Assembly: GCA_021081985.1 (NCBI GenBank)
Contig: GCA_021081985.1_3639.2
Length of the DNA: 54,988 nt
DNA from: a phage
Direction: 5' to 3' (one strand)
This document shows, piece by piece, positions 20,277 to 53,514 of the stretch. The translations under genes were made by a program, and so were the position numbers. The notes beneath the pieces are model-generated. The model did not search any database. It worked only from the letters and a program-made list of their open reading frames with translations, and was not told the origin of the DNA. Positions within the stretch are counted from its first letter, which is position 1; the number at the start of each line of letters is the position of its first letter.

Positions 20277-21713
20277 ATGCAAAAAGACGAATATGAAATG
20301 ATTGCCAAGTTAGAGAAGGATGCTGTAAAAGTTATCCAATCGGCACGAATAGCTCTTTTAAAGTACAGACCATTTTACGGGACTTTGTTAAGTTCTCTAC
20401 CCTTAGTTGCTAACTGGAAATGGTTGCCAACAGCAGCGACTGATCACAAAAACCTCTACTTCAACCCTGAGTTTATTATGGGTATGCCTGAAGAAAGGAA
20501 GAAGAAGGTTTTTGAGCGTGTGGATAATCACCCCACAATGACACAACAAGAAAAAGATGACTATAAAGACTATGTGAACGTATTTTATCGTAAGAAAACA
20601 CCCAAAGAGGTTGTTGTTATTCTTATGCACGAGCTACGTCATATTACTAACGATCATTTATCCCGTGGAAAAGCATTTGATTCTAAAACCTACAACACAG
20701 CAGCAGATCATTATATTAACACGGATTTAGTGGTGTCTGATCTTGGGCCACGCTCCAGCCAGATGTGTTTCTTCCCAATGGGGAAACAGACAACCTTTGA
20801 CAAAGGTAAAGAGTTTGGGTTTATGGCTTATTGCTACTGTGATTTTAATTTCCACGGTAAGACAGCGGAGGAGATTTACAGTCTCATAAACAAAGGCCAA
20901 CCGTCTGTTGGTAAACCTATGGGCACACACATAGGTGATTATGATCAAGACAGCAATATCCTAGGATATGAAGATCCTCACCCAGTGCCAAGCCAAGCAG
21001 AAAAAGATGATAATATGTCGTGGTCATCTGGTCTTATCGAGGCAGCGATGGAAGCAGCGGGAGGAGAGGGGCCGAAAGAGGTGCGTGACGTTATTGCAAG
21101 AATGCGTAAACCACACATAAATTATCTTCAGATAATCAAACAGCGTATGCTTTCTCGGATCAAGTCTAACCTGACATACAGGAAACCATCTCGTAGGTCT
21201 GGATCTATGACACAGGCACTTCGGCAGTATGGAGCTATTGAAAAAAAACAGCATATTGTTTTACCAGGAAGGGAGTACGATAATACTATAGATATAGTTA
21301 TTGGCTTCGATGTGTCTGGATCAATTTCGAAGGCGAATTTAGACAAAATCTTCGGAGAAATTGTAGGATTATGCCAGCTTTACCGCGTTTTTCGCGTGAC
21401 ATTGTTCTGTTGGTCAACAAAAGTCGGAGAGGTTAAAGTTTATACACATGATAATATCAAGGAAATGCTTGATTATAAAGTAAATTCTACGGGTGGGACA
21501 CTTGCAGCATCGGCTTTTGAGTATATTGAAAATAACATTTTTGATGCAAAAGACGTTATTATTTTTACAGACGGGTATATAGAGGATTTAAGCCACAAGA
21601 AAAAAGATTGGGGACGCAAGTGGGATATTCTTTGGGTTATTTGTGGTCGCGGAAATAATAAATTTGTACCACCTTTCGGAAGGGCTGTAAATTTAGATGA
21701 ACACGCAAAATAA
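20277..21713 (+). CDS. VWA-domain protein with N-terminal putative HExxH metallopeptidase domain (DUF2201-like)
   Basis: 478 aa; HELRH zinc-binding-like motif in the N-terminal half; MIDAS motif D-x-S-G-S in VIGFDVSGSIS in the C-terminal half. Confidence 0.65.
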   Translation: MQKDEYEMIAKLEKDAVKVIQSARIALLKYRPFYGTLLSSLPLVANWKWLPTAATDHKNLYFNPEFIMGMPEERKKKVFERVDNHPTMTQQEKDDYKDYVNVFYRKKTPKEVVVILMHELRHITNDHLSRGKAFDSKTYNTAADHYINTDLVVSDLGPRSSQMCFFPMGKQTTFDKGKEFGFMAYCYCDFNFHGKTAEEIYSLINKGQPSVGKPMGTHIGDYDQDSNILGYEDPHPVPSQAEKDDNMSWSSGLIEAAMEAAGGEGPKEVRDVIARMRKPHINYLQIIKQRMLSRIKSNLTYRKPSRRSGSMTQALRQYGAIEKKQHIVLPGREYDNTIDIVIGFDVSGSISKANLDKIFGEIVGLCQLYRVFRVTLFCWSTKVGEVKVYTHDNIKEMLDYKVNSTGGTLAASAFEYIENNIFDAKDVIIFTDGYIEDLSHKKKDWGRKWDILWVICGRGNNKFVPPFGRAVNLDEHAK

Positions 21714-22239: not shown

Positions 22240-22440
22240 ACTAACTTATAAGATCTATTAAATATAATACTACGTATTATAATACTATGATCTATTTAAT
22301 ATGATCTAATATAATATAAATTATATAATATAATATAATTTAATATAATACTACGTATTATATATAATATATATATATATATATATTATATAAAATTTAT
22401 TTAAAATACATTAAGTCTTGAAGAATGTCAAGACTTGATT
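22240..22440. repeat. A/T-rich low-complexity tract with TATAATA-type repeats and a (TA)n run
   Basis: Repeated TATAATACTACGTATTATA, AATATAATATAAT and ATATATATATATATAT in a non-coding interval. Confidence 0.6.
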
Positions 22441-25745: not shown

Positions 25746-26010
25746 TATGATATTTTATCGCTGATATTTGTTTTCCCTGTGATATTTTGTCACAGGGAGA
25801 AGTTTCAACAACAGATATTTTCTTGATACTTTAAAATTCTACCAGAATTTTAAATTCTGTAAATTTAGAAAACTATTACTTATAAGCGTTTCGACACAAT
25901 TTTGTTATGAAAGCCTTGTTTTTATATAAAAACCTGTTTTAGCATGAGTGGTAGGATCACACTCCATACTACCTTTATTCCTACAGATGAGCACCTCCAT
26001 GTCCGAAAAC

Positions 26011-26200
26011 TCGGTTCTCGATCGAAAATTCATTTTCTAAATCGTATTTGCTCCTTACGGAGAAAATTTTTTAGGGCTACAAATTTCAGTTCTCGATCGG
26101 TTTTTCGATTTCAAAATCGTATTTGTTTTTTCTTGCGAAATTTTTCGCACGCTCAGTTCTCGATCGAGTTTTCAAAATCGAAATCGTATTTGCTCTATAG
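26011..26200. repeat. Three imperfect direct repeats (GTTCTCGATCG ... AAATCGTATTTG), 67-75 bp period, with flanking A/T palindromes
   Basis: GTTCTCGATCG at 26014, 26089 and 26156; AAATCGTATTTG at 26039, 26114 and 26181. Confidence 0.6.
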
Positions 26201-26601
26201 CGCGAAAAAATTTTTATGGGTATCATAATTCTATCACACACTTAAACGCAAAGCAACATAAAAATTTTTGTTGAATGATAATCATTCTCATTTGCAGAAT
26301 GACAGGTAGGATTGGTGTCTTATCCTCCCCCGTTGACCATCGTCGCCGTAGTTTGAAGTTTATAGCCGTTCTCGGCTTATCTCTTTGTTAGATAGAGATT
26401 AACATAGTTGCCAAAGGAATCAAGCGTTAATTGTAATCTTTACGTTTCTTTACAAATTTATTTTGGACGAGTTACCGGCGATCGACCTTACAACCAGCGC
26501 CATGGTATGTTAGCCCCGCCTTTACGCCGTGGGGATGGCGTTTCCTCTTTTGTATGTTAGTCATAATAAGCCCAATCCCTGGGCTTGTCAAACATTTTTA
26601 T

Positions 26602-26865: not shown

Positions 26866-26950
26866 TTTTCCTATTCCTCTGTTAGTTGGTTAGTTGTTAA
26901 AATTGTATCTATAATCAGCCAGGTTTGCAAGGCAAATAAAAGAGAAAAAT

Positions 26951-26996
26951 TTTTTAAAAATAGTATTGACAGCGGGGGGTAGTATAGATCTACTAT
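26951..26996 (+). promoter_or_regulatory. Putative sigma70-type early promoter with A/T-rich upstream element
   Basis: AAAAATAGTATTGACA with TTGACA at 26966-26971; the -10 is ambiguous (TATAGAT or TACTAT). The same AAAAATAGTATTGACA element recurs at 32021-32037. Confidence 0.4.
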
Positions 26997-27050
26997 GTGC
27001 ACATCAAGGCGATACACCGCCACCAACCAACCTAAAAGGGGTAAATTAAT

Positions 27051-27674
27051 ATGAAAACCATCGTTAACGCTGAGAATGTATCTTTCGATAAGTTGAACGA
27101 CGAACAAAAAGAAAAAGCCATTGATCTTATTCGTGAGCGTGAAAGAGAAAGCGCCGATAATTTCTTTGCGGATAGTGTCATTGAAGACTATAAGAATGAC
27201 ATTTTACCAGAGTACGGGATCGATGACGCGGTTATCTATTGGTCAGGATTCTGGTCGCAAGGCGACGGCGCATCAATCAGCACTGACAGCGTGGATATTG
27301 AAAAATTTTTAAGAAAAGTTAAATCTTTAACAAAATTTAGAGGTATCCGCAAACTATTTGATCTCGGTGAATATAGCCAGTTATATGCAAGCATTGAGCG
27401 GGATAACTACAGCCGTTACCATCATGAAAATACTGTATCAGGTTACGTTGAGACTATGTATTGCGGTGATTTAACGGCAAAACAGGAAGATCTGATCAAT
27501 CAGCTTGAAAACTTGTTAACTGAAACGATCCGCGATCTGTCTTGTAAACTTTACAGAGATTTAGAATCAGCCTACGATGACCAGTTTACAGATGAAGCCA
27601 TCACCGAGTCAATTGAAGCCAATGATTATCGTTTTGATATTGATGAAGATGGAAAAGTTTACGCTATCGCTTAA
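27051..27674 (+). CDS. Acidic hypothetical protein (first gene of the early cluster)
   Basis: 207 aa, Asp/Glu-rich; RBS AAAAGGGGTAAATTAAT before ATG. Confidence 0.5.
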   Translation: MKTIVNAENVSFDKLNDEQKEKAIDLIRERERESADNFFADSVIEDYKNDILPEYGIDDAVIYWSGFWSQGDGASISTDSVDIEKFLRKVKSLTKFRGIRKLFDLGEYSQLYASIERDNYSRYHHENTVSGYVETMYCGDLTAKQEDLINQLENLLTETIRDLSCKLYRDLESAYDDQFTDEAITESIEANDYRFDIDEDGKVYAIA

Positions 27675-27680
27675 AAGTAC

Positions 27681-27710
27681 TTGCATTCAGTTTTAAAATA
27701 GTATTATACT
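27681..27710 (+). promoter_or_regulatory. Putative promoter TTGCAT-17-TTATAC
   Basis: Precedes the 5' stem-loop at 27721-27740 and the gene at 27762. Confidence 0.35.
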
Positions 27711-27761
27711 ACTATCACAAAGCGGGGAATCTCTCCCCGCGACATTCAGGAGATCATCAAA

Positions 27762-27974
27762 ATGGCTAATATCCGCACCTTGTTAAAAAATGCAAAGCAA
27801 GTTTTATTTTCCGATCACGATTATTTAAATAAAGACATTACAGGCGTAAAGAATATCAAAGACGTAAAAAATGTCATGGGTATCTATTGCAATATGAAGC
27901 GAGTAGGCACATTTGGTAATAAAGTATTATATCAGGCAGGTGACTACAATTTTACTTTGACAATTATTTCATAA
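27762..27974 (+). CDS. Hypothetical small protein
   Basis: 70 aa; RBS CAGGAGATCATCAAA before ATG. Confidence 0.45.
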   Translation: MANIRTLLKNAKQVLFSDHDYLNKDITGVKNIKDVKNVMGIYCNMKRVGTFGNKVLYQAGDYNFTLTIIS

Positions 27975-27980
27975 AACCAC

Positions 27981-28008
27981 TTGCAAAGTTATATAGTCCT
28001 GTTATACT
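27981..28008 (+). promoter_or_regulatory. Putative promoter TTGCAA-16-TATACT
   Basis: Hexamers at 27981-27986 and 28003-28008. Confidence 0.45.
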
Positions 28009-28041
28009 ACCAACATTGACAAACGAGAGGTAAATAAAAAA

Positions 28042-28398
28042 ATGGCAATCCAGGCAATCCTGTTAGAACTTACAGACTTCCGTAATACTGTAAAAAATTT
28101 AACCAAAAAACAGGTTGATAATATTATCAACGGATACCGTAGCAAGATTAAAGATCTTCCGCTTAAACGCGATCAACATGCGGCTAATATGATGCTTGAC
28201 GCTATGATCAAAAAGATGATTCAGTGCGATCTTACTCTGGCTTATGAATACGCTGGCGATCTCTTTGTAACGTATAATAAGCCAGTGCCAGGCATGTGCA
28301 CCACGGAAGAATTGCACGCCCTGAATCTAAAACAAGATGCATGGGATAATATGCGCCGCGTTATGGTGTGGGCAGAAAGCGGTAAAATTTATCAATAA
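28042..28398 (+). CDS. Hypothetical protein
   Basis: 118 aa; RBS GAGAGGTAAATAAAAAA before ATG. Confidence 0.45.
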   Translation: MAIQAILLELTDFRNTVKNLTKKQVDNIINGYRSKIKDLPLKRDQHAANMMLDAMIKKMIQCDLTLAYEYAGDLFVTYNKPVPGMCTTEELHALNLKQDAWDNMRRVMVWAESGKIYQ

Positions 28399-28404
28399 AG
28401 ATAG

Positions 28405-28442
28405 TTGTCTTTTAGTTATGCCGTGGTAGAATACACGGCATA
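28405..28442 (+). promoter_or_regulatory. Promoter TTGTCT-16-TAGAAT with a 9-bp inverted repeat (TATGCCGTG / CACGGCATA) bracketing the -10
   Basis: Arms at 28417-28425 and 28434-28442; near-identical copy at 32649-32686. Confidence 0.5.
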
Positions 28443-28474
28443 GATAAGAGAAACTACTTATCAGAGTTTAAAAG

Positions 28475-28693
28475 ATGAAAAATATTACTGGTAAAACCGA
28501 GCTATTAAAGGCGCTTTCTGTCGGTGAGTCAGCTTTATGGGTATGTGAAAAAGATCGCCTACCGTCGCGTGAGATGGCCTTGTTTAAGGCTTTATCTCTG
28601 AAGCTGAAAATTAAATTATCCCAAAAATTAGCGGTTGTTGCCGCACCTGGGGAAACTGCTTTCAGTGTTGTAATGGTTAAAAGGTTGGAGTAG
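28475..28693 (+). CDS. Hypothetical small protein
   Basis: 72-aa ORF. Confidence 0.4.
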   Translation: MKNITGKTELLKALSVGESALWVCEKDRLPSREMALFKALSLKLKIKLSQKLAVVAAPGETAFSVVMVKRLE

Positions 28694-28713
28694 AAAAAAA
28701 ATTAAAAATTATA

Positions 28714-28742
28714 TTGACAAGCAAAACAGCAAAAATTAAACT
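28714..28742 (+). promoter_or_regulatory. Putative promoter TTGACA-17-TAAACT
   Basis: A-rich upstream tract; precedes the gene at 28781. Confidence 0.35.
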
Positions 28743-28780
28743 TACACACAGTTAAACAAATAATATTAACGAGGTAAATC

Positions 28781-29152
28781 ATGAAACAGTTAACCGCTTC
28801 CCAAAAAGCAATGATCCGCAAGTATGTTTTAAACTCTCTTTCTTTCGATATTGAATCGGGTAGCGAGCAAGATCAGATCAAAGAATTAAAAAACCGATTT
28901 GAATCTGAATACTGGTACGATAGCAACAAGAAACGCTATCAAAATGATAAAGTACAAGGCCTCAAAAATTGGTTGCAAGGTTTGCCGAGTGGTGTTAATA
29001 TCGATTTCACTTATTACGATATTGAGCAACGCCTTAAAGATCTTGGAATCATTACCGAGACGACCAGAGAAAGCACTATTGAAAAATATGTATCTGAGTG
29101 GTGGGATCTGATAGCGCCGTTTTATGCTGGGCTAATCGTCAACTTAAAATAA
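28781..29152 (+). CDS. Hypothetical protein
   Basis: 123 aa; RBS ACGAGGTAAATC before ATG. Confidence 0.45.
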   Translation: MKQLTASQKAMIRKYVLNSLSFDIESGSEQDQIKELKNRFESEYWYDSNKKRYQNDKVQGLKNWLQGLPSGVNIDFTYYDIEQRLKDLGIITETTRESTIEKYVSEWWDLIAPFYAGLIVNLK

Positions 29153-29230
29153 TTATTGTAAACTGTCTGAAACTGGTTTAAATTAAAGGGAGTGAGTTTA
29201 ATCACTCCCAACATGAAAGAGGTTAATCAA

Positions 29231-29542
29231 ATGAATACTTATTTTTCTACTCGTTCACTTGCACGCATTGCAGCGAAAGAAACAGGCGGTAAAGTTTTAG
29301 ATAATGGAAAAGATGCGCCGATCGGTAAACGTTGGCAAGTTATCCCTGGCTATGTTATTGAAGCCGTCCAGGATACAGCGAAACAACGCGCTGAGATGGA
29401 AAATAAACCAGTAGTCACCTTGTCCATTGGTAAGCGTAGCAATGTAGCGAATCAAGCCCGTAAGGCGCTTTATTACGCCATCAATTACGCAAAAAATAAT
29501 AAAACTGTTCCGGTTTATCATAAGCGTTCATTTAAAAAATAA
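29231..29542 (+). CDS. Hypothetical protein (start trimmed to MNTYFST)
   Basis: RBS AAAGAGGTTAATCAA before ATG at 29231; basic C-terminus. Confidence 0.4.
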   Translation: MNTYFSTRSLARIAAKETGGKVLDNGKDAPIGKRWQVIPGYVIEAVQDTAKQRAEMENKPVVTLSIGKRSNVANQARKALYYAINYAKNNKTVPVYHKRSFKK

Positions 29543-29559
29543 TTTTTAATTAGATAAAA

Positions 29560-29583
29560 AAGCGCCCATCTCTTAGGGCGCTT
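29560..29583 (-). terminator. Stem-loop AAGCGCCC/GGGCGCTT with the T-run on the minus strand
   Basis: On the plus strand an A-run precedes the hairpin, so it is oriented to terminate minus-strand transcription inside a plus-strand gene block. Confidence 0.35.
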
Positions 29584-29620
29584 AACCAAAACACCAAAAC
29601 ACTTAAAGAGGTAAATTATT

Positions 29621-29971
29621 ATGAATAATATTGTAGAAGTTTTCAAAAAAGCCGTAGAAAATAAAAACGCTGAATTGTCTTTAGTATCTCTAGATTTCAC
29701 TGATGTTTACGGTAACACTTATTTTGTTTATGAGCTTAGTTTTACTTGTCCTGAGTTAAAAACATGGGAGACGTTGCATAAATCTCGCGATCTGCAATAT
29801 GGATATGGTGATCACGTTTTAACTGTTGCAATGAAAGACCTTTCAACTATCACCGGGGTAAAATCTGAGGCCGCATATATTACCCGTTGGGCGCATGACA
29901 ACGGTTTAAAAATTAGTGTCAACAAGCGCACCAATTGCCGGAAAAAAGATTTAAAACAGTTTATCGCTTGA
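29621..29971 (+). CDS. Hypothetical protein
   Basis: 116 aa; RBS AAAGAGGTAAATTATT before ATG. Confidence 0.45.
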
Positions 29972-29996
29972 TCCTGTTAATCATCTTGGTGGTTGT

Positions 29997-30347
29997 ATGA
30001 TTCAGTTTTATATAATCATCGCGGCGCTTGCAATTTACTTAGGATTGCACAAAAAAGTATTCAGGGTGATTATCTGGTTTTATTACGAGTACAGGATCAA
30101 AATGGTTTTCCATTATATTGAATACTCTTTCCACGGTGAGAGATACCACACAAGAAGATCCGGCCCATTAAATGATCTTGAGGGCAACGGTTTAATCTGT
30201 GAGATTAAAAAGCGTGGCGGTAAAATTCTTTACCACAAAGAGGGTACTTTTGATTATATTGATGAGGTGATTAATTTTAGGCAACAAGCCGTAAAAGATC
30301 ACGCCAGCAAAATAATCAACGGCAGCTATAAACGCAAAGCGGGGTAA
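29997..30347 (+). CDS. Hypothetical protein with N-terminal transmembrane segment
   Basis: 116 aa; N-terminus MIQFYIIIAALAIYLGL is hydrophobic. Confidence 0.4.
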   Translation: MIQFYIIIAALAIYLGLHKKVFRVIIWFYYEYRIKMVFHYIEYSFHGERYHTRRSGPLNDLEGNGLICEIKKRGGKILYHKEGTFDYIDEVINFRQQAVKDHASKIINGSYKRKAG

Positions 30348-30348
30348 T

Positions 30349-30531
30349 ATGCGGAATTTTGAAAAAATTGTTAAAGCTAATCGCCTGGAATACGGGGAAA
30401 CAGACGAAAAACGGGAACGGGTAGGCAAACGCCACAAACCTAAAAAGGTTCCTAAGTTGTGGTGTCCTGATAAATACGATCACAAATTAAAACAGCGTAT
30501 CGCTGAAAAACAGCGACTTAATGCAAGATAA
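30349..30531 (+). CDS. Hypothetical small basic protein
   Basis: 60 aa, Lys/Arg-rich; followed by a terminator. Confidence 0.4.
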   Translation: MRNFEKIVKANRLEYGETDEKRERVGKRHKPKKVPKLWCPDKYDHKLKQRIAEKQRLNAR

Positions 30532-30536
30532 CAGAC

Positions 30537-30561
30537 AAGGCCGGATAGTTCCGGCCTTTTT
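30537..30561 (+). terminator. Rho-independent terminator
   Basis: AAGGCCGGA-TAGT-TCCGGCCTT followed by TTTTT. Confidence 0.6.
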
Positions 30562-30749
30562 AATGCCTGGTGGCGTTCAGAACGATTAAAACTCTTAAAG
30601 ATGGTCCAATGTACCACAAAATAAAATAGCTCGTTAGAGAGTGTTTTAGAGGCCTTAAAATCGATCCGAAAATATCTATAAAAATGCTTGCAATGCTTTC
30701 CCGCTATCGTTATAGTGTTCCCAACAAGCAAGCAAACGAGGTAACGGCA

Positions 30750-30887
30750 ATGATTGAGATTCTTAAAAATCCTATTTTGTGTGGTATGGTTGTTTCTGTG
30801 TCACTTCCGATCGTGCTGTTAGTCGTTGGCGAGATAGATGATCTTATTTTCAATAAAAGACTTGCCAACAAGTCAAAAACAAATTAA
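30750..30887 (+). CDS. Small membrane protein (start trimmed to MIEILKNPIL)
   Basis: RBS ACGAGGTAACGGCA before ATG at 30750; hydrophobic core CGMVVSVSLPIVLLVVG. Confidence 0.35.
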   Translation: MIEILKNPILCGMVVSVSLPIVLLVVGEIDDLIFNKRLANKSKTN

Positions 30888-30924
30888 CATAGTATCAACA
30901 TACTAACTGACGAGGTGATTTAAT

Positions 30925-31143
30925 ATGTTTGGTTTTATTGTTCTATCTTGTTCTCTTTCTGTCACTGCTGCAAAGGTAGAATGTAACTACACTGTAAAAG
31001 AGACTTTTAATGATGAAAATTCTTGCAATGTATACGAAAATAATTATAAACTAGGAGACGGGGAGCAGTTCGGGATCTGTGATGAATTAAAGGACGGTAT
31101 CAAGAAAGGCGATAAGCGCCCGATCCTGGTCCTGAAAAAATAA
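30925..31143 (+). CDS. Small secreted protein (signal peptide-like N-terminus)
   Basis: 72 aa; N-terminus MFGFIVLSCSLSVTAAKV; RBS GACGAGGTGATTTAAT. Confidence 0.4.
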   Translation: MFGFIVLSCSLSVTAAKVECNYTVKETFNDENSCNVYENNYKLGDGEQFGICDELKDGIKKGDKRPILVLKK

Positions 31144-31175
31144 TTTTTCTAATCATGTTGATCAATTTTTAAGAG

Positions 31176-31472
31176 GTGAATAAAATGTTTGAAGTTTTCG
31201 CGGGTATGTGCTTTTATACAGCTTTGGCAGTTCGCCAGTGTGATGATTATATCGTTGAATCATACGATGATCAGTTGACTTGCGAAATAGTCGCTAATGA
31301 CTACGGCAAAAAAGATCGCTGGATTAATCCGGCTTGCATACCATCCCCAGAGGTTGAAGCCATGCCGGAAGGGGAAGAGGTATCAGATCCAGTTGTAGCA
31401 GTATCCTCCTTTTTCGTTGACAACCTGGACGCCCAAGAATTGATCAACATGTATGTAAAAAATCAAAAATAA
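31176..31472 (+). CDS. Hypothetical protein
   Basis: 98 aa; RBS TAAGAGGTGAATAAA before ATG. Confidence 0.45.
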   Translation: MNKMFEVFAGMCFYTALAVRQCDDYIVESYDDQLTCEIVANDYGKKDRWINPACIPSPEVEAMPEGEEVSDPVVAVSSFFVDNLDAQELINMYVKNQK

Positions 31473-31475
31473 CGC

Positions 31476-31510
31476 TTGACGTTGATTTGTGCCACCTTAT
31501 AATAGGTGGC
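31476..31510 (+). promoter_or_regulatory. Promoter TTGACG-16-TATAAT with the -10 inside the inverted repeat GCCACCT/AGGTGGC
   Basis: TTGACG at 31476-31481, TATAAT at 31498-31503; palindrome arms at 31491-31497 and 31504-31510. Confidence 0.5.
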
Positions 31511-31562
31511 ATAGGTAAGCGAAAGCGGATCTAAGTCTTAAACAAGTTAAGAGAGGTAAATC

Positions 31563-31697
31563 ATGGAACAAGCTAATAAATTTTTCTTTCTGGCTGGGAT
31601 CGTGGATAATGTGAAATATGATTTCAAGCGTGAAAATGATAAGACGTTACTCACTTTCTGCGATATGCTTGATCATGAGAATGCCGACAAGTTATGA
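31563..31697 (+). CDS. Hypothetical small protein (44 aa, not in the ORF track)
   Basis: RBS AAGAGAGGTAAATC before ATG; translated MEQANKFFFLAGIVDNVKYDFKRENDKTLLTFCDMLDHENADKL. Confidence 0.3.
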   Translation: MEQANKFFFLAGIVDNVKYDFKRENDKTLLTFCDMLDHENADKL

Positions 31698-32031
31698 ATC
31701 GAGATCCGCACGATAACCAATATCGACAATTCAAGCCGTTTAATTTATAAATCTCATTCGATAGCTTACAGCTTGGAAACATCAACAAGCTGCATACAAC
31801 AAGGTGAGAGCTTGCCCATTCTAAATAGTGCCGATGTATTTGGCGCGGTTGTTGCAATTGTAAATGATGTTTTTTCTCGTTGATTGGTGTTAATATTATG
31901 TTAGAGAATATCGTGTTTTGGTGTGGTGTCGTTATCGCTGTTATGGTTGGCATCCTGGCGACGATGGCGAACATTGTGATCTCAAACAACCTGGCAGGGT
32001 AAAAATTTTTTAAAAATAGTATTGACATACT

Positions 32032-32059
32032 GGCGGCATATGGTATCATTTACCACATG
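32032..32059 (+). promoter_or_regulatory. Promoter TTGACA-16-TATCAT with extended -10 TG and upstream AAAAATAGTA element
   Basis: TTGACA at 32032-32037; TGGTATCAT at 32051-32059. Confidence 0.45.
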
Positions 32060-32100
32060 AAGGGGCGAGATTGACTTGCCTCACTAACGAAAGGTAAATA

Positions 32101-32370
32101 ATGATGAACATTTCTAAAACTACTTTTAACTTTGCTAAAAAGCGTGGAATTGAGCTTGAGCTAGTCGAAGCAGATGATCGCTTGCTCCTGGCTTTTTATG
32201 AAGCTAAAAACGAATGTGAGTGGATGTTCTCTTATAATGTTAATCATGATTGCCTAACCTGGCGCGGAAATATCTATCTTTCAAACGAAGTGAAAGAGGA
32301 ATTACCCGCCACGATCACGACTGAGAAAAAACTACGTGAGGTTATTGACTTCATCTCTAAAAGTATCTAA
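32101..32370 (+). CDS. Hypothetical protein
   Basis: 89 aa; RBS ACGAAAGGTAAATA before ATG. Confidence 0.45.
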   Translation: MMNISKTTFNFAKKRGIELELVEADDRLLLAFYEAKNECEWMFSYNVNHDCLTWRGNIYLSNEVKEELPATITTEKKLREVIDFISKSI

Positions 32371-32417
32371 GATTACAGGGAAAGGGGCAAAAGCCCCCTA
32401 CCGCAGAAGGTATAAAA

Positions 32418-32642
32418 ATGGATAAATTAACAAAGATTGAACATGAAGTTATGGATCTTGCACGGGCTAATAAGCCATTTGACAAGATTTACTCTAAGGA
32501 GAATAAAGAGATCTTGAAAGATCTAACGCAAGGCCAAAAAGACGGCTTGCGCCGCTTATATCGTGAGGCGTATGACTATTTTCGCTGGTGGGAAATAGAA
32601 GAGGCTAACGCGAAAATAGAAGGCTTAGAAAATTTAGTATAA
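32418..32642 (+). CDS. Hypothetical small protein
   Basis: 74 aa; RBS CAGAAGGTATAAAA before ATG. Confidence 0.4.
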   Translation: MDKLTKIEHEVMDLARANKPFDKIYSKENKEILKDLTQGQKDGLRRLYREAYDYFRWWEIEEANAKIEGLENLV

Positions 32643-32648
32643 AAGTAG

Positions 32649-32686
32649 TTGACTTTTAGTTATGCCGTGATAGAATGCACGGCATA
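32649..32686 (+). promoter_or_regulatory. Promoter TTGACT-16-TAGAAT with the same 9-bp inverted repeat (TATGCCGTG / CACGGCATA) as at 28405-28442
   Basis: The two copies share about 40 nt including both palindrome arms. Confidence 0.5.
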
Positions 32687-32737
32687 GATAAGAGAGACGG
32701 CATAAGCCATTAATTAAACTTAAAGAGGTGAATTATC

Positions 32738-33139
32738 ATGAATACTTATGGTACTGTTTTTAATTTCGACAACTTCAAAGCTATCTGTGACGATCAGATC
32801 GGTAAGTGCCGTAAAGAAAAAGGATTCTATAAATCTTATAAATTGATTGCGGTTGTTGATGAAGAGATCACCGAAGTGGCGACGCTCAACCTGTACCACA
32901 CCAACGCTACTAATTACGCTTGCTTATGGATGCACTGGACCAATATTAAAGGTTGGGATCATGGCTATGTTGGCGGGAAAGCAAGCGGATACGGTTACAA
33001 CAGGGAAGAGGCCGCGATCCATGTTGCAGCTAATAAACTCGGTATTACCGGCAACTGGTTTAACGGTGAACAATTGTTAGATGCAATGGCACGTCATTTT
33101 GATATGAAAGGCGCGAAGGTTATCTGCTGCAACGCGTGA
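32738..33139 (+). CDS. Hypothetical protein
   Basis: 133 aa; RBS AAAGAGGTGAATTATC before ATG. Confidence 0.45.
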   Translation: MNTYGTVFNFDNFKAICDDQIGKCRKEKGFYKSYKLIAVVDEEITEVATLNLYHTNATNYACLWMHWTNIKGWDHGYVGGKASGYGYNREEAAIHVAANKLGITGNWFNGEQLLDAMARHFDMKGAKVICCNA

Positions 33140-33186
33140 TCACTCAATAGCGGGGAATATTCCCCGCTTATAGATAGGGCATAATC

Positions 33187-33570
33187 ATGATTTACGATCT
33201 TAAATATTACGACGAATTGAGCATTGCAGCACAATTAACCGCCCGTGTCAATATTATAGCAGACCTGGAGAATCACCACAGAAAGCGCATAGCTCAGACT
33301 ATCGCCAGTTTTAAAAATGATCCCCATAAAGTGATTAATGACACGAAGCACATTCAACGCCTGATAAACGGCGCAAAGGCGCTTTATAGTGTACGCCATT
33401 ACGTGGATGATTACCTTATAAAGTTTATTCGTGATAATCGTTTGATCTTTACCCCTGGGGGCAGCTATATAACCTATAGCGACGGCTTTATGATGATTAT
33501 TGGAGGTAAGGAATACACCCCCCACGGCCTCACAACAAAAAGCATTGAGGGAGCTTTACATAGCCATTAA
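33187..33570 (+). CDS. Hypothetical protein
   Basis: 127-aa ORF preceded by the stem-loop at 33149-33168. Confidence 0.4.
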   Translation: MIYDLKYYDELSIAAQLTARVNIIADLENHHRKRIAQTIASFKNDPHKVINDTKHIQRLINGAKALYSVRHYVDDYLIKFIRDNRLIFTPGGSYITYSDGFMMIIGGKEYTPHGLTTKSIEGALHSH

Positions 33571-33642
33571 TGAACGCGGTCCGTCATATCATGATTGGTT
33601 ATATAGAATACACCACAAGATAAAAATTTTTATGATTCCCGC

Positions 33643-33671
33643 TTGACACCCTCATAAAAACGCCTTATTAT
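33643..33671 (+). promoter_or_regulatory. Promoter TTGACA-17-TATTAT
   Basis: Followed by the 5' stem-loop GGCGGGGAGCGGTTCCCCGCC (33683-33703) and the gene at 33725. Confidence 0.45.
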
Positions 33672-33724
33672 CTATCTCATAAGGCGGGGAGCGGTTCCCC
33701 GCCACACTTAAGAGGTAAATAATC

Positions 33725-34090
33725 ATGCGTAACCTGGTTCATGTTTCCAACGTTGAAAAATTCCAATCTTTACAGGCTATCGTAAACGATACAGCGCTTT
33801 TTATCGTTAAAGGCTTGATCGCAAGAATGCAACAGAAAAAACCTGAAATCTGGGCTAATTATTGCCTTGATAATGATGATCAGGCCGCCGCTTTCATGGT
33901 TGGCGAACTGCTGGGAAGTGTAGGGAACATGTTACCGGAAAACATCGCAGAAGAGATCGCCTACCGTTACAATATGGCGATAACTTATCAGGAAGTCGCA
34001 CAATTTAACCTGATGGATGACGACGAACAACAGGACAGGAAATTTTCTGGGAGTATGCCGACCGCCAAGCCGTTTTTGATGAGCGGTTAG
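33725..34090 (+). CDS. Hypothetical protein
   Basis: 121 aa; RBS TAAGAGGTAAATAATC before ATG. Confidence 0.45.
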   Translation: MRNLVHVSNVEKFQSLQAIVNDTALFIVKGLIARMQQKKPEIWANYCLDNDDQAAAFMVGELLGSVGNMLPENIAEEIAYRYNMAITYQEVAQFNLMDDDEQQDRKFSGSMPTAKPFLMSG

Positions 34091-34118
34091 AGATGTACTA
34101 TAATGAATGGTAATGAAC

Positions 34119-34147
34119 AGGCCGCATATTAGCGGCCTTTAATTTTT
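34119..34147 (+). terminator. Putative rho-independent terminator
   Basis: AGGCCGC-ATATTA-GCGGCCT followed by TTTAATTTTT. Confidence 0.5.
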
Positions 34148-34150
34148 CTA

Positions 34151-34178
34151 TTGACAATATTACACTAACCTTTAAAAT
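34151..34178 (+). promoter_or_regulatory. Putative promoter TTGACA-16-TAAAAT
   Basis: Precedes the small gene at 34210. Confidence 0.4.
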
Positions 34179-34209
34179 GTTCTCTGTTAAGTATCTTTAA
34201 AGGTGTAAC

Positions 34210-34389
34210 ATGTTTCAATCAATCATTGATGTTCTATCAGTCGCTAACAACGTGATGAATGTAATTACAATGATTAAACTTGTTGCGTGGTTTGTTTCTG
34301 GGGATTATCGCTATATCAAATGGCGCAAGCCAACCATAAAAGACGTAGCGAAGATCTCATTTGAAGCAATGACAGAATATTATCTATAA
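34210..34389 (+). CDS. Hypothetical small protein (59 aa, not in the ORF track)
   Basis: RBS AAAGGTGTAAC before ATG; translated MFQSIIDVLSVANNVMNVITMIKLVAWFVSGDYRYIKWRK... Confidence 0.3.
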   Translation: MFQSIIDVLSVANNVMNVITMIKLVAWFVSGDYRYIKWRKPTIKDVAKISFEAMTEYYL

Positions 34390-34401
34390 CGATTATTTTT
34401 G

Positions 34402-34430
34402 TTGACATCCTGGGATTACTCTTTTACTAT
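34402..34430 (+). promoter_or_regulatory. Putative promoter TTGACA-17-TACTAT
   Basis: Precedes the gene at 34485. Confidence 0.4.
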
Positions 34431-34484
34431 TAACGTGACTGGAAGGCCGTAACTGGTACGACCTGATTTGAAAGGTGAATTAAT

Positions 34485-34685
34485 ATGAAACGTTTTACTT
34501 ATGGTGTTGTCGGTGGTTCTGTTTCTAATCGGTTTTACAATACCGAGCGTGGTGCTAAAAATGCGGCTACCCGTGAACATGGCAATAGTGTGAATTTACA
34601 AGTTGGCTATATTAGCAAAATTAGCGGCATGTTTATTCCGGTTGCTCAACGCGGCATGTATTGCATAAACTGGATGCCAATGTAA
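34485..34685 (+). CDS. Hypothetical small protein
   Basis: 66 aa; RBS AAAGGTGAATTAAT before ATG. Confidence 0.45.
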   Translation: MKRFTYGVVGGSVSNRFYNTERGAKNAATREHGNSVNLQVGYISKISGMFIPVAQRGMYCINWMPM

Positions 34686-34700
34686 AAAGGAGTAATAAAA

Positions 34701-34892
34701 ATGGATGTACCACAAGTTAGAAAGGTATTAGCAGCGTTACGCTATCACAATTATAGCAAGGTGAAGAATGATCCTGATTATGTTGATTCAAGCCTGGAGG
34801 AAGACACATTGCAAGCTATAAGCCATATGCAGAAATTGCTTAAACGTATGACAGAGAAGAACAGATCTGATTATATAGGTGAAGAGATTTAA
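34701..34892 (+). CDS. Hypothetical small protein
   Basis: 63 aa; RBS AAAAGGAGTAATAAAA before ATG; last gene before the gene-poor region. Confidence 0.45.
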   Translation: MDVPQVRKVLAALRYHNYSKVKNDPDYVDSSLEEDTLQAISHMQKLLKRMTEKNRSDYIGEEI

Positions 34893-34923
34893 TCTCTTAC
34901 AACCGCACAAAGTAAAATTGTAC

Positions 34924-34952
34924 AAAGGGCGCTTAATGCGCCCTTTCTTTTT
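34924..34952 (+). terminator. Rho-independent terminator ending the plus-strand early cluster
   Basis: GGGCGC-TTAAT-GCGCCC followed by TTTCTTTTT. Confidence 0.6.
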
Positions 34953-35429
34953 GCTCTAATAAACATGATAAGTTTTATCTATCAAAACACCACACAGAAC
35001 AAAAATGAATAAAACGCGGTATCGAGCTAAACGAGGATAGGCAATACAACGGCAAGGCTAAACACTTAAGGCCGTTACAACGCGATTTAGGCCGCTTAAA
35101 ATCGATCCCCACCACAAACAACCCCCACAAAATGACCAAAACGACACAACATTACTTAAATGATAACCATTATCAATAACATAAGCATTTTTATGCGTTT
35201 TTAGTGAATATCTATTTAAATGATAATGACTCTCAACAACAAAATAACACGACCGAAGCGATTTAATCGCCTATCACAAAATAAATCAATTGTAAAGAAC
35301 AATTTAAAAGCTGCATAGGTGGCGCGACCGTAGGGAGCGACACAATAACGCAGTAGTAACCCCTCCCCCTCACTCCTTACAGTCGCCCGGTATCGGGCTA
35401 GCGTTATTATGTCGCTACGCGCCAACGCG

Positions 35430-35720
35430 TTAACAATTTTGCAAAGAAGCCTGCTTTGCAGGTTAAGCGCAATGCGCTTAATCGCGTAGCGACTATGTGA
35501 AATTATAACAGTTAAATTATTAATAAAATCTTGCAAAATTGTTAACCTCCTGCGTTATTGTGTCCATGAATGGATGAGGAATAATATTCCTCCCAGCTAC
35601 CGCTGCAAAATTGTGTCCTGTACGGATTAGTTACGTATGTAACTAACAACTAACGTTGCAAAATTGTGTCACGTAGTGATTAGCTGAGAATCAGCTAACC
35701 CGTAAAACGGGCTAAATTAT
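35430..35720. repeat. Cluster of TTGCAAAATTGT-type repeats, each followed by a short palindrome
   Basis: TTGCAAAG/TTGCAAAATTGT occurs near 35444, 35531, 35609 and 35661; palindromes include GTTACGTATGTAAC, TAGCTGAGAATCAGCTA and AAGCGCAATGCGCTT. Confidence 0.5.
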
Positions 35721-37482
35721 TCCCATTAATCCCCCGATTATTACGCAGTAAATCACTTGCTTATTACGTTTAATTAGCCTGTTAAACAGGCTAGTAATGT
35801 GATGACCATTAACCACGATTATTGTTTGGATTATCCAGCCTAAACCGCTTATCATGCTGTTAAATTCTGTTAAGTGCCTGAAATGCCAGATCAATTTGGT
35901 CACTGCGTGATTATGATTGCGACAATAATTTGCTTATGATTGTTTATGTGCTGTTTATAATTGCTTATGTTTTGTTATAGTTTGCTATTTATTTGTTATG
36001 TTTTGTTTGTGATTTGTTAAACACCCTTTTATCTTTCCTCTTACATTTTCGTTATATTTGATTTGTTATCGTTTTCCCTCATTTCGCTTCGTTATTGAAA
36101 ACAAGAATTATTATCATTGATACGCCTTAACAGGCTGGCAGGTCTGTTAGTGGTCTGGTTCTCTGTGTGGTCATGTGATGGTTGGTTGTAGTAGCCTGGT
36201 TTTATGGTCTGGCCTGTTATTGTTAGCTTGCTTATTGTTGTGTGGTGTATGTATCAGTTAGCTAGTGCATTAGCTGGTGCGCATAACGTGTATTATGTTA
36301 AATCACTAAGCCCACAAATAAGGTGGCTTGTCAATAACAATAAGTGCTGTGTGCGGTAGTCTGGCCCATCAGTGTGCCCTTTTGTTGTGTGGTGTCCGAT
36401 GACAAGGCGGGACTATCCACCCGACATCGTGAAAACTCGATGGATTCTCGATCACAATAGCTGTAAGATATTTTGTAAAGATTCGTAGTTTTTCTTGACA
36501 CCCACAATCATCCGTCTAACCCTTCAGAGATAAATACATGACAAATTCGCACAAATTCACCACCTGCCGTGCCACGTCACTAATCTCGCAAGGATATTTC
36601 TGGAAGTGAACCTGCACGCAATGCAGCACGCGTCTTGTTGTGTGGGGAGGGTGGGGTAACAATCAGGAAGTGGTGTGGCTGTGATAACGTATTGGATAAA
36701 AACTCTGGCTGGCTTGTCGATGATATTTGTGTGGGGAAATGCTGATGGGTAAGAGATAAGACACTTGTCTCCGGCAGGGGTGGGGTGTGGAAAAGAAATG
36801 GGTCGGACAGACCCATTGTGATATAGAAATGAAATGGCCATCTCACCATTGACCAGGTAAGCCAATATCAAGGCCAAATTCGTGGCACTCATCCCAGTCA
36901 AGACTTTGATTCCAGTTTGTAACTGTCCTCTCTGTGTGGTGGGTGTATGATGCTCTCTGTGACTGCTTTGGCATCTTTTTTGTCTGAGATTTCCCGAAAA
37001 GAGGTGTGTTGTCATTGAGTCTTCCGGCAGCCTTTTCACCCTTTTTGACTTGTCTCCCACGGGCATTCCACTGCTCCAGTGTCCTGTAACACATAAAATC
37101 ATTCTCCTGTAATATCTGGTGTGGGGAATGGTAGTGGAGAATATCAACCGTGTCAAGTAGGTTTGCTTAGAGGCGTTATTATAAAAATTTTTTGGTGGGC
37201 TTTCTGGGGCTGGCTGTCGGGCTGTAAACAAGCTGTGAAGCCAGATGTGACGGGGCTTTCAGCTATGTTGTGTGTTGATCGCAAATAAGGATAAAATAAT
37301 CAATATAAATGCAGATAAATGTTGTTTTATTGAGTTTGTGTAATAGGTGTGTCATGTCTTGATAGGTTATGACCTGTACATATTTTGTACAATTGTGTGG
37401 TGTGCAGAGTTTGGGTGGCAATTCCCCAGACGGGGCAGGGTAGGTTATGGTGGAGAGCAGGGGCATGGTTAGCCCCATATGA

Positions 37483-37806
37483 TCAGGGTTGTGCGTCTGT
37501 TTGTTTGAACTGGTCTTTTGAACGTATTACATAACCACAACCATATTTTCTCAGCCAGACCAGTTCCCATGGACTATCACTCAGGTTTTTCCTGTTTATC
37601 TCTTTTAGCTGGGCAACCGCATCGTCCCATGATGTGACTTCGAGATAACCGATGAGACTGTCCTCTCCAAAATCTCCGTAATCAAATGTGCATCTGACCT
37701 TGGCGATAAACTCTGTCTGTGGATTTTCGGGTTTTACAAAAGCCCAGTGAAAGATTTGTTCTGTGCAATGCTCATTAACCCACCTTATTTGTGTGGTCAT
37801 AATCAC
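37483..37806 (-). CDS. Hypothetical protein
   Basis: 107 aa; first gene of the minus-strand block after the gene-poor region. Confidence 0.4.
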   Translation of the reverse strand: MIMTTQIRWVNEHCTEQIFHWAFVKPENPQTEFIAKVRCTFDYGDFGEDSLIGYLEVTSWDDAVAQLKEINRKNLSDSPWELVWLRKYGCGYVIRSKDQFKQTDAQP

Positions 37807-53241: not shown

Positions 53242-53514
53242 CGCTGCTTTCGCAGTATTTTTACGGACTAGACTATATCACGATCTTGTGACCACTCACA
53301 AGACCCTCCACATTTCGCCATTCAAGGCTACTCTACTCGCTTCTTCACATCAGGTGAGGCTGATGCTATGCTTTCGATAGTCGTTAGAGACAATTTCTTG
53401 CCTACGGGGTTAGCTCTGCCCCCAGCGGGGTTTAGCCTTTCTTACCAGCTTATTGTTTATTCAGCTATGCCCGTTTAGTGGAGTTATTCGACAACCATCA
53501 CTGGTTGAAGGCCC
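53242..53514 (-). other. Group I intron (ORF-less, about 270 nt) within nrdD; boundaries approximate (about +/-20 nt)
   Basis: Minus strand carries CUAAACGGG, R-like AACGACUAUC, S-like GAUAUAGUC (P7 pairing GACUA/UAGUC), a GNRA-capped hairpin CUGCGAAAGCAG before the 3' junction, and a possible P1 between exon ACAACU and internal guide GGUUGU. Confidence 0.65.

Follow-up and report, generated by a model that had tools for sequence, protein, structure and literature searches.

A cluster of 22 small genes in an rV5-like phage

The contig GCA_021081985.1_3639.2 of the GenBank assembly GCA_021081985.1 is a stretch of phage DNA of 54,988 nucleotides (the window, 55 kb in the following), and this report deals with a cluster of small plus-strand genes at positions 27051-34892 and with the repeated promoter-hairpin elements between these genes. 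The 7.8-kb stretch was 94-95% identical on the nucleotide level, over its full length, to the Escherichia phages 24-2-1, TH18 and Av-05, the last of which is classified in the Vequintavirinae, genus Avunavirus. By this similarity, the source is an rV5-like phage of E. coli that belongs to the same genus, and other rV5-like and phi92-like phages matched fragments of the cluster only. The cluster is bounded by a divergent promoter region at approximately 26900-27000 and by a strong terminator at 34924. With a GC content of about 38%, the DNA shows a positive GC skew between about 19 kb and 35 kb, in agreement with rightward transcription. In the records of the close relatives every gene beneath the match is annotated as 'hypothetical protein'; a homologue of the 70-aa gene 2 is mislabelled in relatives' records as 'phosphoribosylpyrophosphate synthetase'.

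Between 27051 and 34892, 22 plus-strand open reading frames (ORFs) were counted (Table 1), where an earlier reading of the letters alone (the sequence-only reading) had listed about 21, nearly all of them shorter than 130 codons; the latter holds for 19 or 20 of the 22, the exceptions being gene 1 (207 aa), gene 17 (133 aa) and gene 18 (152 aa in relatives). Its description of the products as acidic, basic or membrane-targeted was borne out, since products of each kind, secretion-targeted ones included, were found; membrane or secretion signals are present in genes 10, 11, 12 and 14. Matches to PHROG families were obtained for 20 of the genes, the exceptions being gene 20 and the unscanned gene 14, and all of these families are of 'unknown function'. 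A codon-level comparison of the cluster gave a ratio of nonsynonymous to synonymous changes (pN/pS) of 0.13 against Av-05 and of 0.11 against TH18, with a divergence of 10.6% at third, 3.8% at first and 2.2% at second codon positions. The ratio of single genes was 0.32 or lower, except for two very short segments with 3 differences each (gene 10, 0.58; N-terminal part of gene 13, 0.44 against TH18). The PHROG matches and the low pN/pS indicate that the ORFs of the cluster are real protein-coding genes under purifying selection. Paralogues of the 22 proteins were not found elsewhere in the window.

Three genes are damaged in this genome relative to Av-05 and TH18, in both of which they are intact. 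Gene 13 carries a CGA to TGA nonsense mutation at codon 45 (31695-31697), which shortens the product from 106 to 44 aa; in gene 18, a C-run is longer by one C at 33518 (+1 frameshift, ORF end at 33570); and gene 19 has lost 1 nt at 34036 (-1 frameshift, altered C-terminus, ORF end at 34090). The disruptions speak for a dispensability of these accessory genes. They could reflect real gene loss or sequencing errors, the latter being conceivable for the frameshift in the homopolymer at 33518 in particular.

Promoters are concentrated in the gaps and on the coding strand

Plus-strand sites resembling sigma70 promoters occurred with a density of 9.3 per kb in intergenic and 1.4 per kb in coding DNA, which makes them 6.6-fold denser in the gaps. 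With at least 10 of 12 matches to the consensus hexamers, eight promoters were intergenic and one was coding; a single one was found on the minus strand. The entire window has 16 strong plus-strand promoters, and nine of them fall inside the 8-kb cluster. The DNA upstream of the -35 had an AT content of 0.68-0.95 at eight of these nine; the remaining site, at 34076, has an upstream AT content of 0.41 and lies inside the intact gene 19. A program scan returned 49 promoter sites (31 +/- 5 in shuffles) and 20 terminator-like sites (8 +/- 3 in shuffles). About 12 of the 22 genes have a predicted promoter of their own, strongly biased to the gaps and to the coding strand, which upholds the earlier view that many of the genes are preceded by one. 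Upstream of gene 1, the AT-rich element plus -35 (27 nt) is 100% identical to a copy upstream of gene 15.

A shared ribosome site had been ascribed to nearly every gene. The site, AAGAGGTAAAT, exists and is enriched over shuffles (62 copies with up to 2 mismatches in the window vs 27 +/- 5), but only about 10 of the 22 genes carry it: nine plus-strand copies in the cluster have at most 1 mismatch, each immediately 5' of a start codon, and one further copy has 2 mismatches. With this motif and the limits of the PHROG matches, start codons were corrected to 29231 (gene 6), 30750 (gene 10) and 31185 (gene 12). The individual terminators postulated by the sequence-only reading were reduced to three plus-strand terminators with a canonical T-tract, after genes 9, 19 and 22, the other hairpins lacking a T-tract. 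The closing terminator (34924-34946) is conserved in the phages PaulScherrer and J-01.

Stem-loops adjoin or enclose the promoters and conserve their pairing

The 5' stem-loops noted before were recovered: 12 of 18 intergenic regions folded far better than shuffles (z of -2.3 or lower, range to -6.8), three of them with z between -5.1 and -6.8. The palindrome GCGGGGA-N5-TCCCCGC occurred twice, with 0 occurrences expected. Two arrangements can be distinguished. In arrangement (a), found for genes 2, 15 and 19 and probably also present at gene 1, the promoter is followed by a GC-rich hairpin 11-13 nt past the -10 and then by the ribosome site, so that the hairpin begins at about +4 to +6 of the predicted transcript. 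In arrangement (b), found for genes 4, 13 and 17, a long imperfect palindrome is centred on the -10 and the hexamer forms the loop (z -5.1 to -6.8). Hairpins without a promoter lie between genes 6/7, 15/16 and 17/18.

Selection on these structures was assessed by folding each sequence separately and by comparing three genomes, this one, Av-05 and TH18, which are about 6% apart. Double substitutions that preserve a base pair were found in five different stems: G-C to A-T in gene 2 (Av-05 and TH18), A-T to G-C in gene 13 (the relatives), C-G to A-T in gene 15 (Av-05) and G-C to A-T in genes 17 and 19 (Av-05). All stem variants keep a similar folding energy in the three genomes. On this comparison the conserved feature of the stems is the pairing, not the sequence. 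Besides, the loops of two terminator hairpins were exactly inverted between relatives while the stems were unchanged, ATAGTT/AACTAT at 30537-30558 (in Av-05 and TH18) and ATATTA/TAATAT at 34119-34138 (in TH18). The loop of the hairpin at 29560-29583 reads ATCTCTTA here and TAAGAAAT/TAGGAAAT in Av-05/TH18; the exact reverse complement would be TAAGAGAT, and the loop is thus a near, not an exact, reverse complement of that of the relatives. Judged by their form, these changes are small hairpin inversions of the type made by intrastrand template switching.

Cassettes are repeated, reordered and inserted as units

Promoter, hairpin and ribosome site recur as a cassette. Within the cluster, an 81-nt repeat with 80% identity is common to the cassettes of genes 4 and 17. 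For comparison, the related arrays of JEP1 (Vequintavirus), PaulScherrer/Bas60 (Justusliebigvirus) and J-01 were analysed. The arrays of JEP1, PaulScherrer and J-01 contain 17-19 promoters per 10 kb with at least 10 of 12 matches, nearly all with a perfect TTGACA. Over the four arrays, 32 of 63 promoters are followed by a hairpin of -8 kcal/mol or lower within the first 40 nt, which is the case for 16% of random 40-mers; the stems mostly begin 10-12 nt past the -10. The arrays contain several distinct stem sequences, for example GGGCGGGAAATGGTTTCCCGCC, GGGCGGCAATAGTGCCGC, GGGGCAAGCGCCCC and GCGGGGCAACGCCCC. In JEP1, three near-identical cassettes (2481-2530, 3111-3160 and 6847-6896) carry the -35 TTGACA in the loop of GATGGCC...GGCCATC, a '-35-overlapping' subclass that is absent from this window.

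The order of the homologous genes differs between the arrays: it is g17, g9, g1, g3 ... g20-22 in JEP1 and g3, g7, g2, g5, g15, g14, g4, g19 in PaulScherrer. The blocks of nucleotide similarity to these two phages terminate at promoters, hairpins or terminators. The block 27750-27987 starts just past the gene 2 hairpin and comprises gene 2, the block 28159-28407 stops at the stop codon of gene 3, the block 33665-34114 extends from within the gene 19 promoter to just short of the terminator, and the block 34151-34892, 92% identical to JEP1, begins precisely at the -35 of gene 20. Beyond Avunavirus, nucleotide conservation is restricted to parts of genes 2, 3 and 19, and gene 19 is the most widely conserved gene of the cluster.

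Two indels distinguish the cluster from TH18 / 24-2-1 and both, in this sample of two, are whole promoter-hairpin-RBS-ORF cassettes (RBS, ribosome site). The first insertion of TH18 / 24-2-1 is joined directly after the shared TTGACATCC (-35) of the gene 21 promoter and contributes a -10 of its own together with a CACATAAGGGCGGCAATGATGCTGCCC hairpin, a ribosome site, an ORF of 41 aa and a new promoter; the hairpin of this TH18-specific insertion is of the PaulScherrer/JEP1 type. The second indel lies between gene 22 and the final terminator, has a short direct repeat on its flanks and consists of TTGACA-N17-TATTAT, a hairpin, a ribosome site and an ORF of 122 aa. By comparison of the genomes, the region is a shuffling accessory zone of repeated, exchangeable cassettes, a feature that the sequence-only reading had missed.

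Table 1 Genes and regulatory features of the cluster and its borders (positions in the window)
Feature	Position	Strand	Description
Gene 1 promoter region	26945..26996	+	27-nt AT-rich element plus -35 (AAAAATTTTTTAAAAATAGTATTGACA); -10 uncertain (TACTAT, spacer 19)
Gene 1	27051..27674	+	207 aa, acidic, pI 4.4
Gene 2 weak promoter	27681..27710	+	TTGCAT-N18-TATACT, 8/12; read directly, under the threshold of the program scan
Gene 2 5' stem-loop	27722..27740	+	GCGGGGAATCTCTCCCCGC; begins 11 nt past -10
Gene 2	27762..27974	+	70 aa, basic
Gene 3 promoter	27981..28008	+	TTGCAA-N16-TATACT, extended TG
Gene 3	28042..28398	+	118 aa; conserved in JEP1 (67%) and PaulScherrer (79%)
Gene 4 promoter	28405..28442	+	TTGTCT-N16-TAGAAT
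Gene 4 hairpin	28417-28442	+	TATGCCGTG/CACGGCATA; -10 hexamer in loop; z -5.8
Gene 4	28475..28693	+	72 aa, basic
Gene 5 promoter	28714..28742	+	TTGACA-N17-TAAACT; A-rich upstream DNA, no hairpin
Gene 5	28781..29152	+	123 aa, all-alpha
Gene 6	29231..29542	+	103 aa from ATG after AAGAGGTTAAT; mechanical ORF start GTG 29192; very basic
Gene 6/7 hairpin	29560..29583	+	AAGCGCCC...GGGCGCTT; A-run before stem, terminator-like for minus strand
Gene 7	29621..29971	+	116 aa
Gene 8	29997..30347	+	116 aa, N-terminal hydrophobic helix
Gene 9	30349..30531	+	60 aa, very basic; start 1 nt past gene 8 stop
Intrinsic terminator after gene 9	30537..30558	+	AAGGCCGG-ATAG-TTCCGGCCTT then TTTTAAT
Gene 10 promoter-like site	30688..30716	+	TTGCAA-N17-TATAGT
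Gene 10	30750..30887	+	45 aa, predicted single-pass membrane protein; start from PHROG match and GAGGTAA ribosome site
Gene 11	30925..31143	+	72 aa, N-terminus signal-peptide or lipobox-like, 4 Cys
Gene 12	31185..31472	+	95 aa, acidic, hydrophobic N-terminus, 4 Cys
Gene 13 promoter	31476..31527	+	TTGACG-N16-TATAAT, 11/12, within long hairpin
Gene 13 hairpin	31476..31527	+	TGCCACCT/AGGTGGCA, loop = -10 (31498-31503); z -6.8
Gene 13	31563..31883	+	106 aa in Av-05/TH18; 44 aa here
Gene 14	31898..32002	+	34-40 aa hydrophobic peptide; overlaps stop of intact gene 13
Gene 15 cassette	32001..32083	+	27-nt AT-rich element plus -35, TTGACA-N16-TATCAT (TG), then 5' hairpin
Gene 15 5' hairpin	32063-32083	+	GGGGCGAG..CTTGCCTC
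Gene 15	32101..32370	+	89 aa
Gene 15/16 intercistronic hairpin	32384..32397	+	GGGGC-AAAA-GCCCC
Gene 16	32418..32642	+	74 aa
Gene 17 promoter	32649..32686	+	TTGACT-N16-TAGAAT, TG
Gene 17 hairpin	32661-32686	+	TATGCCGTG/CACGGCATA, -10 in loop; z -5.1
Gene 17	32738..33139	+	133 aa, 5 Cys
Gene 17/18 intercistronic hairpin	33149..33168	+	AGCGGGGAATATTCCCCGCT; no promoter or T-tract; z -3.5
Gene 18	33187..33646	+	152 aa in relatives; 127 aa here
Gene 19 cassette	33643..33703	+	TTGACA-N17-TATTAT, 11/12, then hairpin
Gene 19 5' hairpin	within 33643..33703	+	GGCGGGGAGCGGTTCCCCGCC, 11 nt past -10
Gene 19	33725..34114	+	129 aa, acidic; 121 aa here
Intrinsic terminator after gene 19	34119..34138	+	AGGCCGC-ATATTA-GCGGCCT then TTAATTTTTC
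Gene 20 promoter	34151..34178	+	TTGACA-N16-TAAAAT
Gene 20	34210..34389	+	59 aa
Gene 21 promoter	34402..34430	+	TTGACA-N17-TACTAT
Gene 21	34485..34685	+	66 aa, basic
Gene 22	34701..34892	+	63 aa
Strong terminator closing the cluster	34924..34946	+	AAAGGGCGC-TTAAT-GCGCCCTTT then CTTTTTGC; z -4.4

Gene products

Function searches covered all genes except gene 14, with gene 22 compared to PHROG and NCBIfam only and gene 13 to all collections but NCBIfam. Across Pfam, NCBIfam, PHROG and PDB sequence and fold searches no match to any characterised protein was obtained, the family of gene 9 aside. Pfam matches above cut-off were limited to gene 9, apart from a marginal one for gene 15 (TPK_B1_binding, 23 vs 22 bits over 35 residues), which was dismissed as too short, and NCBIfam gave nothing. 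Gene 9 matched PF08200 Phage_1_1 (T7 gp1.1) with 27.9 bits against a gathering cut-off of 21, residues 1-33 aligning to profile positions 1-31 of 40; for this family, too, no function is known. PDB sequence searches with genes 1, 5, 6, 17 and 19 gave no significant match, and neither did profile searches against PDB with the families of genes 1 and 5.

The family of gene 1 comprises 300 proteins at E <= 0.001 with identities down to about 30%, none of which has a Pfam domain. The motifs GFWSQGDGAS and Y-x-H-E-N-T are invariant and look like a ligand-binding or catalytic site. With respect to the earlier statement that no product has a recognisable enzymatic motif, database and fold searches indeed yielded no function, but these active-site-like motifs of gene 1 qualify it. 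Relatives of gene 1 in unrelated phage contigs lie in arrays of small ORFs adjoining ligase, phage sigma factor or rIIB-like genes. The family of gene 5 amounts to 269 clusters at 50% identity and is present in 138 phage records. Structure prediction, which had been proposed as a check, gave confident AF2 models for both genes (gene 1, pLDDT 93.3; gene 5, all-alpha, pLDDT 95.5), and neither had a match in PDB by fold search (Foldseek for gene 5). As far as the models go, genes 1 and 5 are large uncharacterised families with confident, unmatched folds.

Some candidate identities were rejected. An assignment of gene 1 as GNAT acetyltransferase was dropped, since the structural match was partial and fell short of a whole-domain match with the acetyl-CoA motif Q/R-x-x-G-x-G/A. 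For gene 5, a single-sequence phmmer search had pointed to the sigma-binding protein gp67 of Staphylococcus phage G1 (PDB 4g6d, E 0.022), but a family profile of 50 sequences missed 4g6d at E up to 1 and Foldseek missed it as well. Ksap2 (Bas60_220), a characterised protein of Bas60, is encoded outside the homologous array, and in the Acb5 paper Bas60 is merely a test phage.

Comparison with known systems

The design closest to that of the cluster is the PeSL (promoter-early stem-loop). It is a strong sigma70-like promoter preceded by AT-rich DNA, with a poly-G/poly-C stem-loop before the -35, in the spacer between the hexamers, across one of them or directly past the -10 (Arbiol et al. 2010, PMC2839356; Comeau et al. 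2014, PMC4122927). PeSLs concentrate in hyperplastic regions of T4-like phages, before ORFans, and recombination among them causes indels and replacements (PMC2839356, PMC4122927). The array described here shares with them the consensus sigma70 promoter, the AT-rich upstream DNA and a stable stem-loop with G-run/C-run arms that lies over the -10 (genes 4, 13 and 17), over the -35 (JEP1) or just past the -10 (genes 2, 15 and 19). Likewise, it has many copies in a variable region before small ORFs of unknown function, and its two indels are whole cassette-plus-ORF units joined inside regulatory sequence. Unlike the PeSLs of T4-like phages, the array belongs to Vequintavirinae / Stephanstirmvirinae, not to Tevenvirinae, has no sequence similarity to T4-type PeSLs, adds a conserved extended ribosome site, and most of its stem-loops lack a T-tract; further, promoter and terminator activity and mini-circles were demonstrated for RB49 and phi1, whereas the promoters and terminators of the array are predicted. 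In the library searched, none of 8 papers that mention PeSLs together with phages deals with an rV5-like phage. For the accessory early region of a large lytic phage, a repeated promoter-hairpin array is nothing unusual, as a specialist would expect; what appears to be new is its presence in the rV5-like lineage, the kind of design being already known from T4-like phages.

The class I (early) region of T7 is similar in that several host-polymerase promoters drive small host-takeover genes, and gene 9 belongs to the family of T7 gene 1.1. Hairpins between the T7 early genes (RNase III sites) process and stabilise the mRNAs. In T7, however, three promoters are clustered at the left end and give one polycistronic transcript, whereas here the promoters are distributed over the cassettes, and gene 9 apart there is no shared gene.

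In rV5 itself, 'genes 11-26' form a rightward unit with a Srd-like first gene after bidirectional promoters, and the unit ends at a bidirectional terminator beside an ORF-free region (Kropinski et al. 2013, PMC3606486). Both phages belong to the same subfamily and the window shows matching landmarks, but the gene content of rV5 is strongly divergent from this cluster, and the rV5 paper, which lists promoters and terminators, does not describe repeated promoter-hairpin cassettes or a role in shuffling (PMC3606486). Upstream of the cluster, a plus-strand block opens with an ORF at 18975-19772 (+), which has the promoter TTGACA-N16-GATACT at 18914. The N-terminal 90-120 residues of its product match PHROGs labelled 'Srd anti-sigma factor' / 'decoy of host sigma70', residues 9-98 aligning to positions 3-87 of the 251-position PHROG 1400 'Srd anti-sigma factor' with E 1e-14. 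Over its full length, the product is matched best by PHROG 3118, which bears the label HNH endonuclease.

A probable accessory early region assembled from cassettes

We consider it probable that cassettes of the PeSL type make up the cluster and that it represents the accessory ('hyperplastic') early region in the genome of an rV5-like coliphage. A cassette would combine a sigma70 consensus promoter and its AT-rich upstream element with a GC-rich stem-loop and a strong AAGAGGTAAAT site, and would drive one to three small ORFs. What comparative sequence analysis establishes in support is the position and strand bias of the promoters, the selection for stem pairing, the repetition of cassettes, and the cassette-bounded indels and reordering. 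The proposal of the sequence-only reading that this is the layout of an early region holds in so far as consensus TTGACA/TATAAT hexamers, confined to gaps and coding strand and preceded by AT-rich DNA, are what an accessory region driven by host RNA polymerase would have; early expression and host interference are plausible and fit the architecture.

According to this model, unmodified host RNA polymerase would fire all promoters right after DNA entry, and three T-tract terminators would split the array into genes 1-9, 10-19 and 20-22. Hairpins close to the transcript 5' end (about +3 to +6) would give the mRNAs a protective, stabilising stem-loop. Hairpins that enclose the -10 (genes 4, 13 and 17) and intercistronic hairpins would form only in read-through RNA or in DNA and may attenuate or process transcripts arriving from upstream, so that each cassette would be insulated. 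Emory, Bouvet and Belasco are said to have found in 1992 that 5' stem-loops protect mRNA from RNase E. A predicted role as RNA stabiliser fits with the Srd-like N-terminal domain encoded upstream, a partial similarity, because T4 Srd, in the passage of PMC4980113 that cites Qi 2015, stimulates RNase E on host mRNA. Homology between the cassettes would supply crossover points for gene exchange. The products would be dispensable and taxon-restricted, comprising envelope-targeted peptides (10-12 and 14), small proteins of basic or acidic character and a single protein resembling T7 gp1.1, and most likely they act on the host or on competitors, in takeover, counter-defence or superinfection exclusion.

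Several observations weigh against this model or parts of it. Early expression is inferred only from the type of promoter, and the authors of the rV5 paper report sigma70-like promoters throughout the genome (PMC3606486). A strong downstream hairpin follows only four of the nine strongest promoters here, and the cassettes are less uniform than those of PaulScherrer. A search of 2.9 million viral contigs recovered the gene 4 / gene 17 cassette in Av-05 only; it is therefore lineage-specific and not widely mobile. Most hairpins are without a T-tract, and the roles as terminator, attenuator or stabiliser are predicted. The Srd-like match is limited to the N-terminus (about 90 residues), and the best PHROG match of this protein is labelled HNH endonuclease. 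No usable covariation was obtained with RNAalifold from 26 cassettes aligned by MAFFT, since differing loop lengths put the stems out of register. Finally, symmetric compensatory changes would equally keep a palindromic binding site for a protein.

The last point leads to the possibility that the stem-loops are mainly operators, at which a dimeric phage repressor would bind the inverted repeats at the -10 and shut the early promoters together. In genes 4, 13 and 17 the -10 is at the exact centre of a perfect inverted repeat of 8-9 bp, so that a transcript from these promoters lacks the full hairpin, and 15 promoter-like sites of the window have their -10 within a perfect repeat of at least 6 bp, compared to 2.6 +/- 1.5 in shuffles; the changes at symmetric positions preserve this palindrome. 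However, the arms are wholly different among the cassettes (TATGCCGTG, TGCCACCT, GCGGGGA, GGGGCGAG, GGGCGGG...) and therefore a single repressor could not read every operator. Furthermore, pairing and not sequence is conserved, most hairpins of the relatives sit downstream of the -10 inside the transcript, and no candidate repressor was identified, which makes operators an improbable main function. We regard it as similarly unlikely that the region is not specifically early, with weak or decorative promoter-like sites and transcription by read-through or at middle or late times. The literature searches found no transcriptome of rV5-like phages, about 10 genes are without a promoter of their own, and the genome-wide distribution of sigma70-like promoters in rV5 was accompanied by doubts of its authors about a T4-like promoter switch (PMC3606486). 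Against this stand the strong strand and position bias, the near-consensus hexamers with AT-rich upstream DNA, the identical design with perfect TTGACA in three other phages, and the divergent promoter region and terminators that delimit the unit.

That the array is a decaying remnant in which many small ORFs are no longer functional genes is very unlikely. Nonsense or frameshift mutations affect 3 of the 22 genes and none has an assigned function, but the overall pN/pS of 0.11-0.13, the integrity of the three genes in both relatives, the frameshift at 33518 that could be a sequencing error, the PHROG families for 20 of the 22 genes and the large, diverse families of genes 1 and 5 argue otherwise. 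A bolder reading, which has rather little probability in our estimate, sees the GC hairpins as DNA sites of cassette exchange and, separately, genes 1 and 5 as founders of new host-interference families. Exchange could proceed through DNA hairpin or cruciform formation and template switching, and such a gene-capture system could move promoter-hairpin-ORF units among Vequintavirinae and Stephanstirmvirinae. The two exactly and one nearly inverted loops between genomes that are 94% identical, and the TH18-specific insertion that joins directly after a shared -35, would fit such an exchange; the confident unmatched folds, the large families and the active-site-like motif of gene 1 would fit new families.

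If the accessory early region is indeed built from cassettes as proposed, PeSL-like elements would be a general solution for such regions of large lytic phages beyond the T4 family, and they would provide a simple rule to locate exchangeable sets of host-interaction genes in rV5-like and phi92-like phages. Phages of these two kinds have a use in phage therapy and in the BASEL collection. The cluster itself offers targets, namely the families of genes 1 and 5 and a compact set of envelope-targeted peptides.

Other features of the window

In the plus-strand block upstream of the cluster, 20277-21713 (+) encodes a protein of 478 aa with DUF2201_N metallopeptidase-like and VWA-like domains, with which its PHROG label 'HNH endonuclease' conflicts. 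Between plus-strand genes, very AT-rich overlapping repeats of the ATATAA type are located at 22294-22366, with promoter-like sites at 22340 (+) and 22431 (-). The segment 25750-26600 is poor in ORFs and contains a unit of 63-75 nt in three tandem copies (26010-26214); since a near-consensus leftward promoter, TTGACA-N17-TATTAT (26591-26563), is directed into it, it may encode a non-coding transcript.

On the other side of the cluster, about 2.5 kb (34950-37480) are without a credible ORF and 85% conserved in Av-05; this is the counterpart of the 'non-coding' box of the rV5 paper. Within it, 35320-35800 is strongly structured on both strands (z down to -5.7), with nested inverted repeats at 35339/35547 and 35429/35531 and a 37-nt direct repeat at 35594/35647. 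Rfam searches over the whole window (gathering score) and over 34800-37600 (E-value threshold) gave no match in or adjoining the cluster, and a tRNA search found none. Palindromes resembling Fur boxes, which match GATAATGATAATCATTATC at 15 of 19 positions on both strands and in registers that overlap, occur at 26271-26295, 35156-35180 and 35213-35244 in the ORF-free DNA that flanks the cluster on both sides; with at least 14 of 19 matches, 16 such sites were counted in the window, compared to 4.3 in mononucleotide shuffles.

Towards the end of the window, a group I intron (54037-54277, minus strand; Rfam RF00028, 80.9 bits) interrupts the anaerobic ribonucleotide reductase gene nrdD, and the flanking ORFs 54230-54541 and 53498-54016 (-) correspond to positions 155-263 and 263-415 of Pfam NRDD. 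The split resembles that by the intron of T4 nrdD (sunY). A further gap in nrdD at 53161-53498, where the NRDD profile jumps from 415 to 440, may hide a second insertion.

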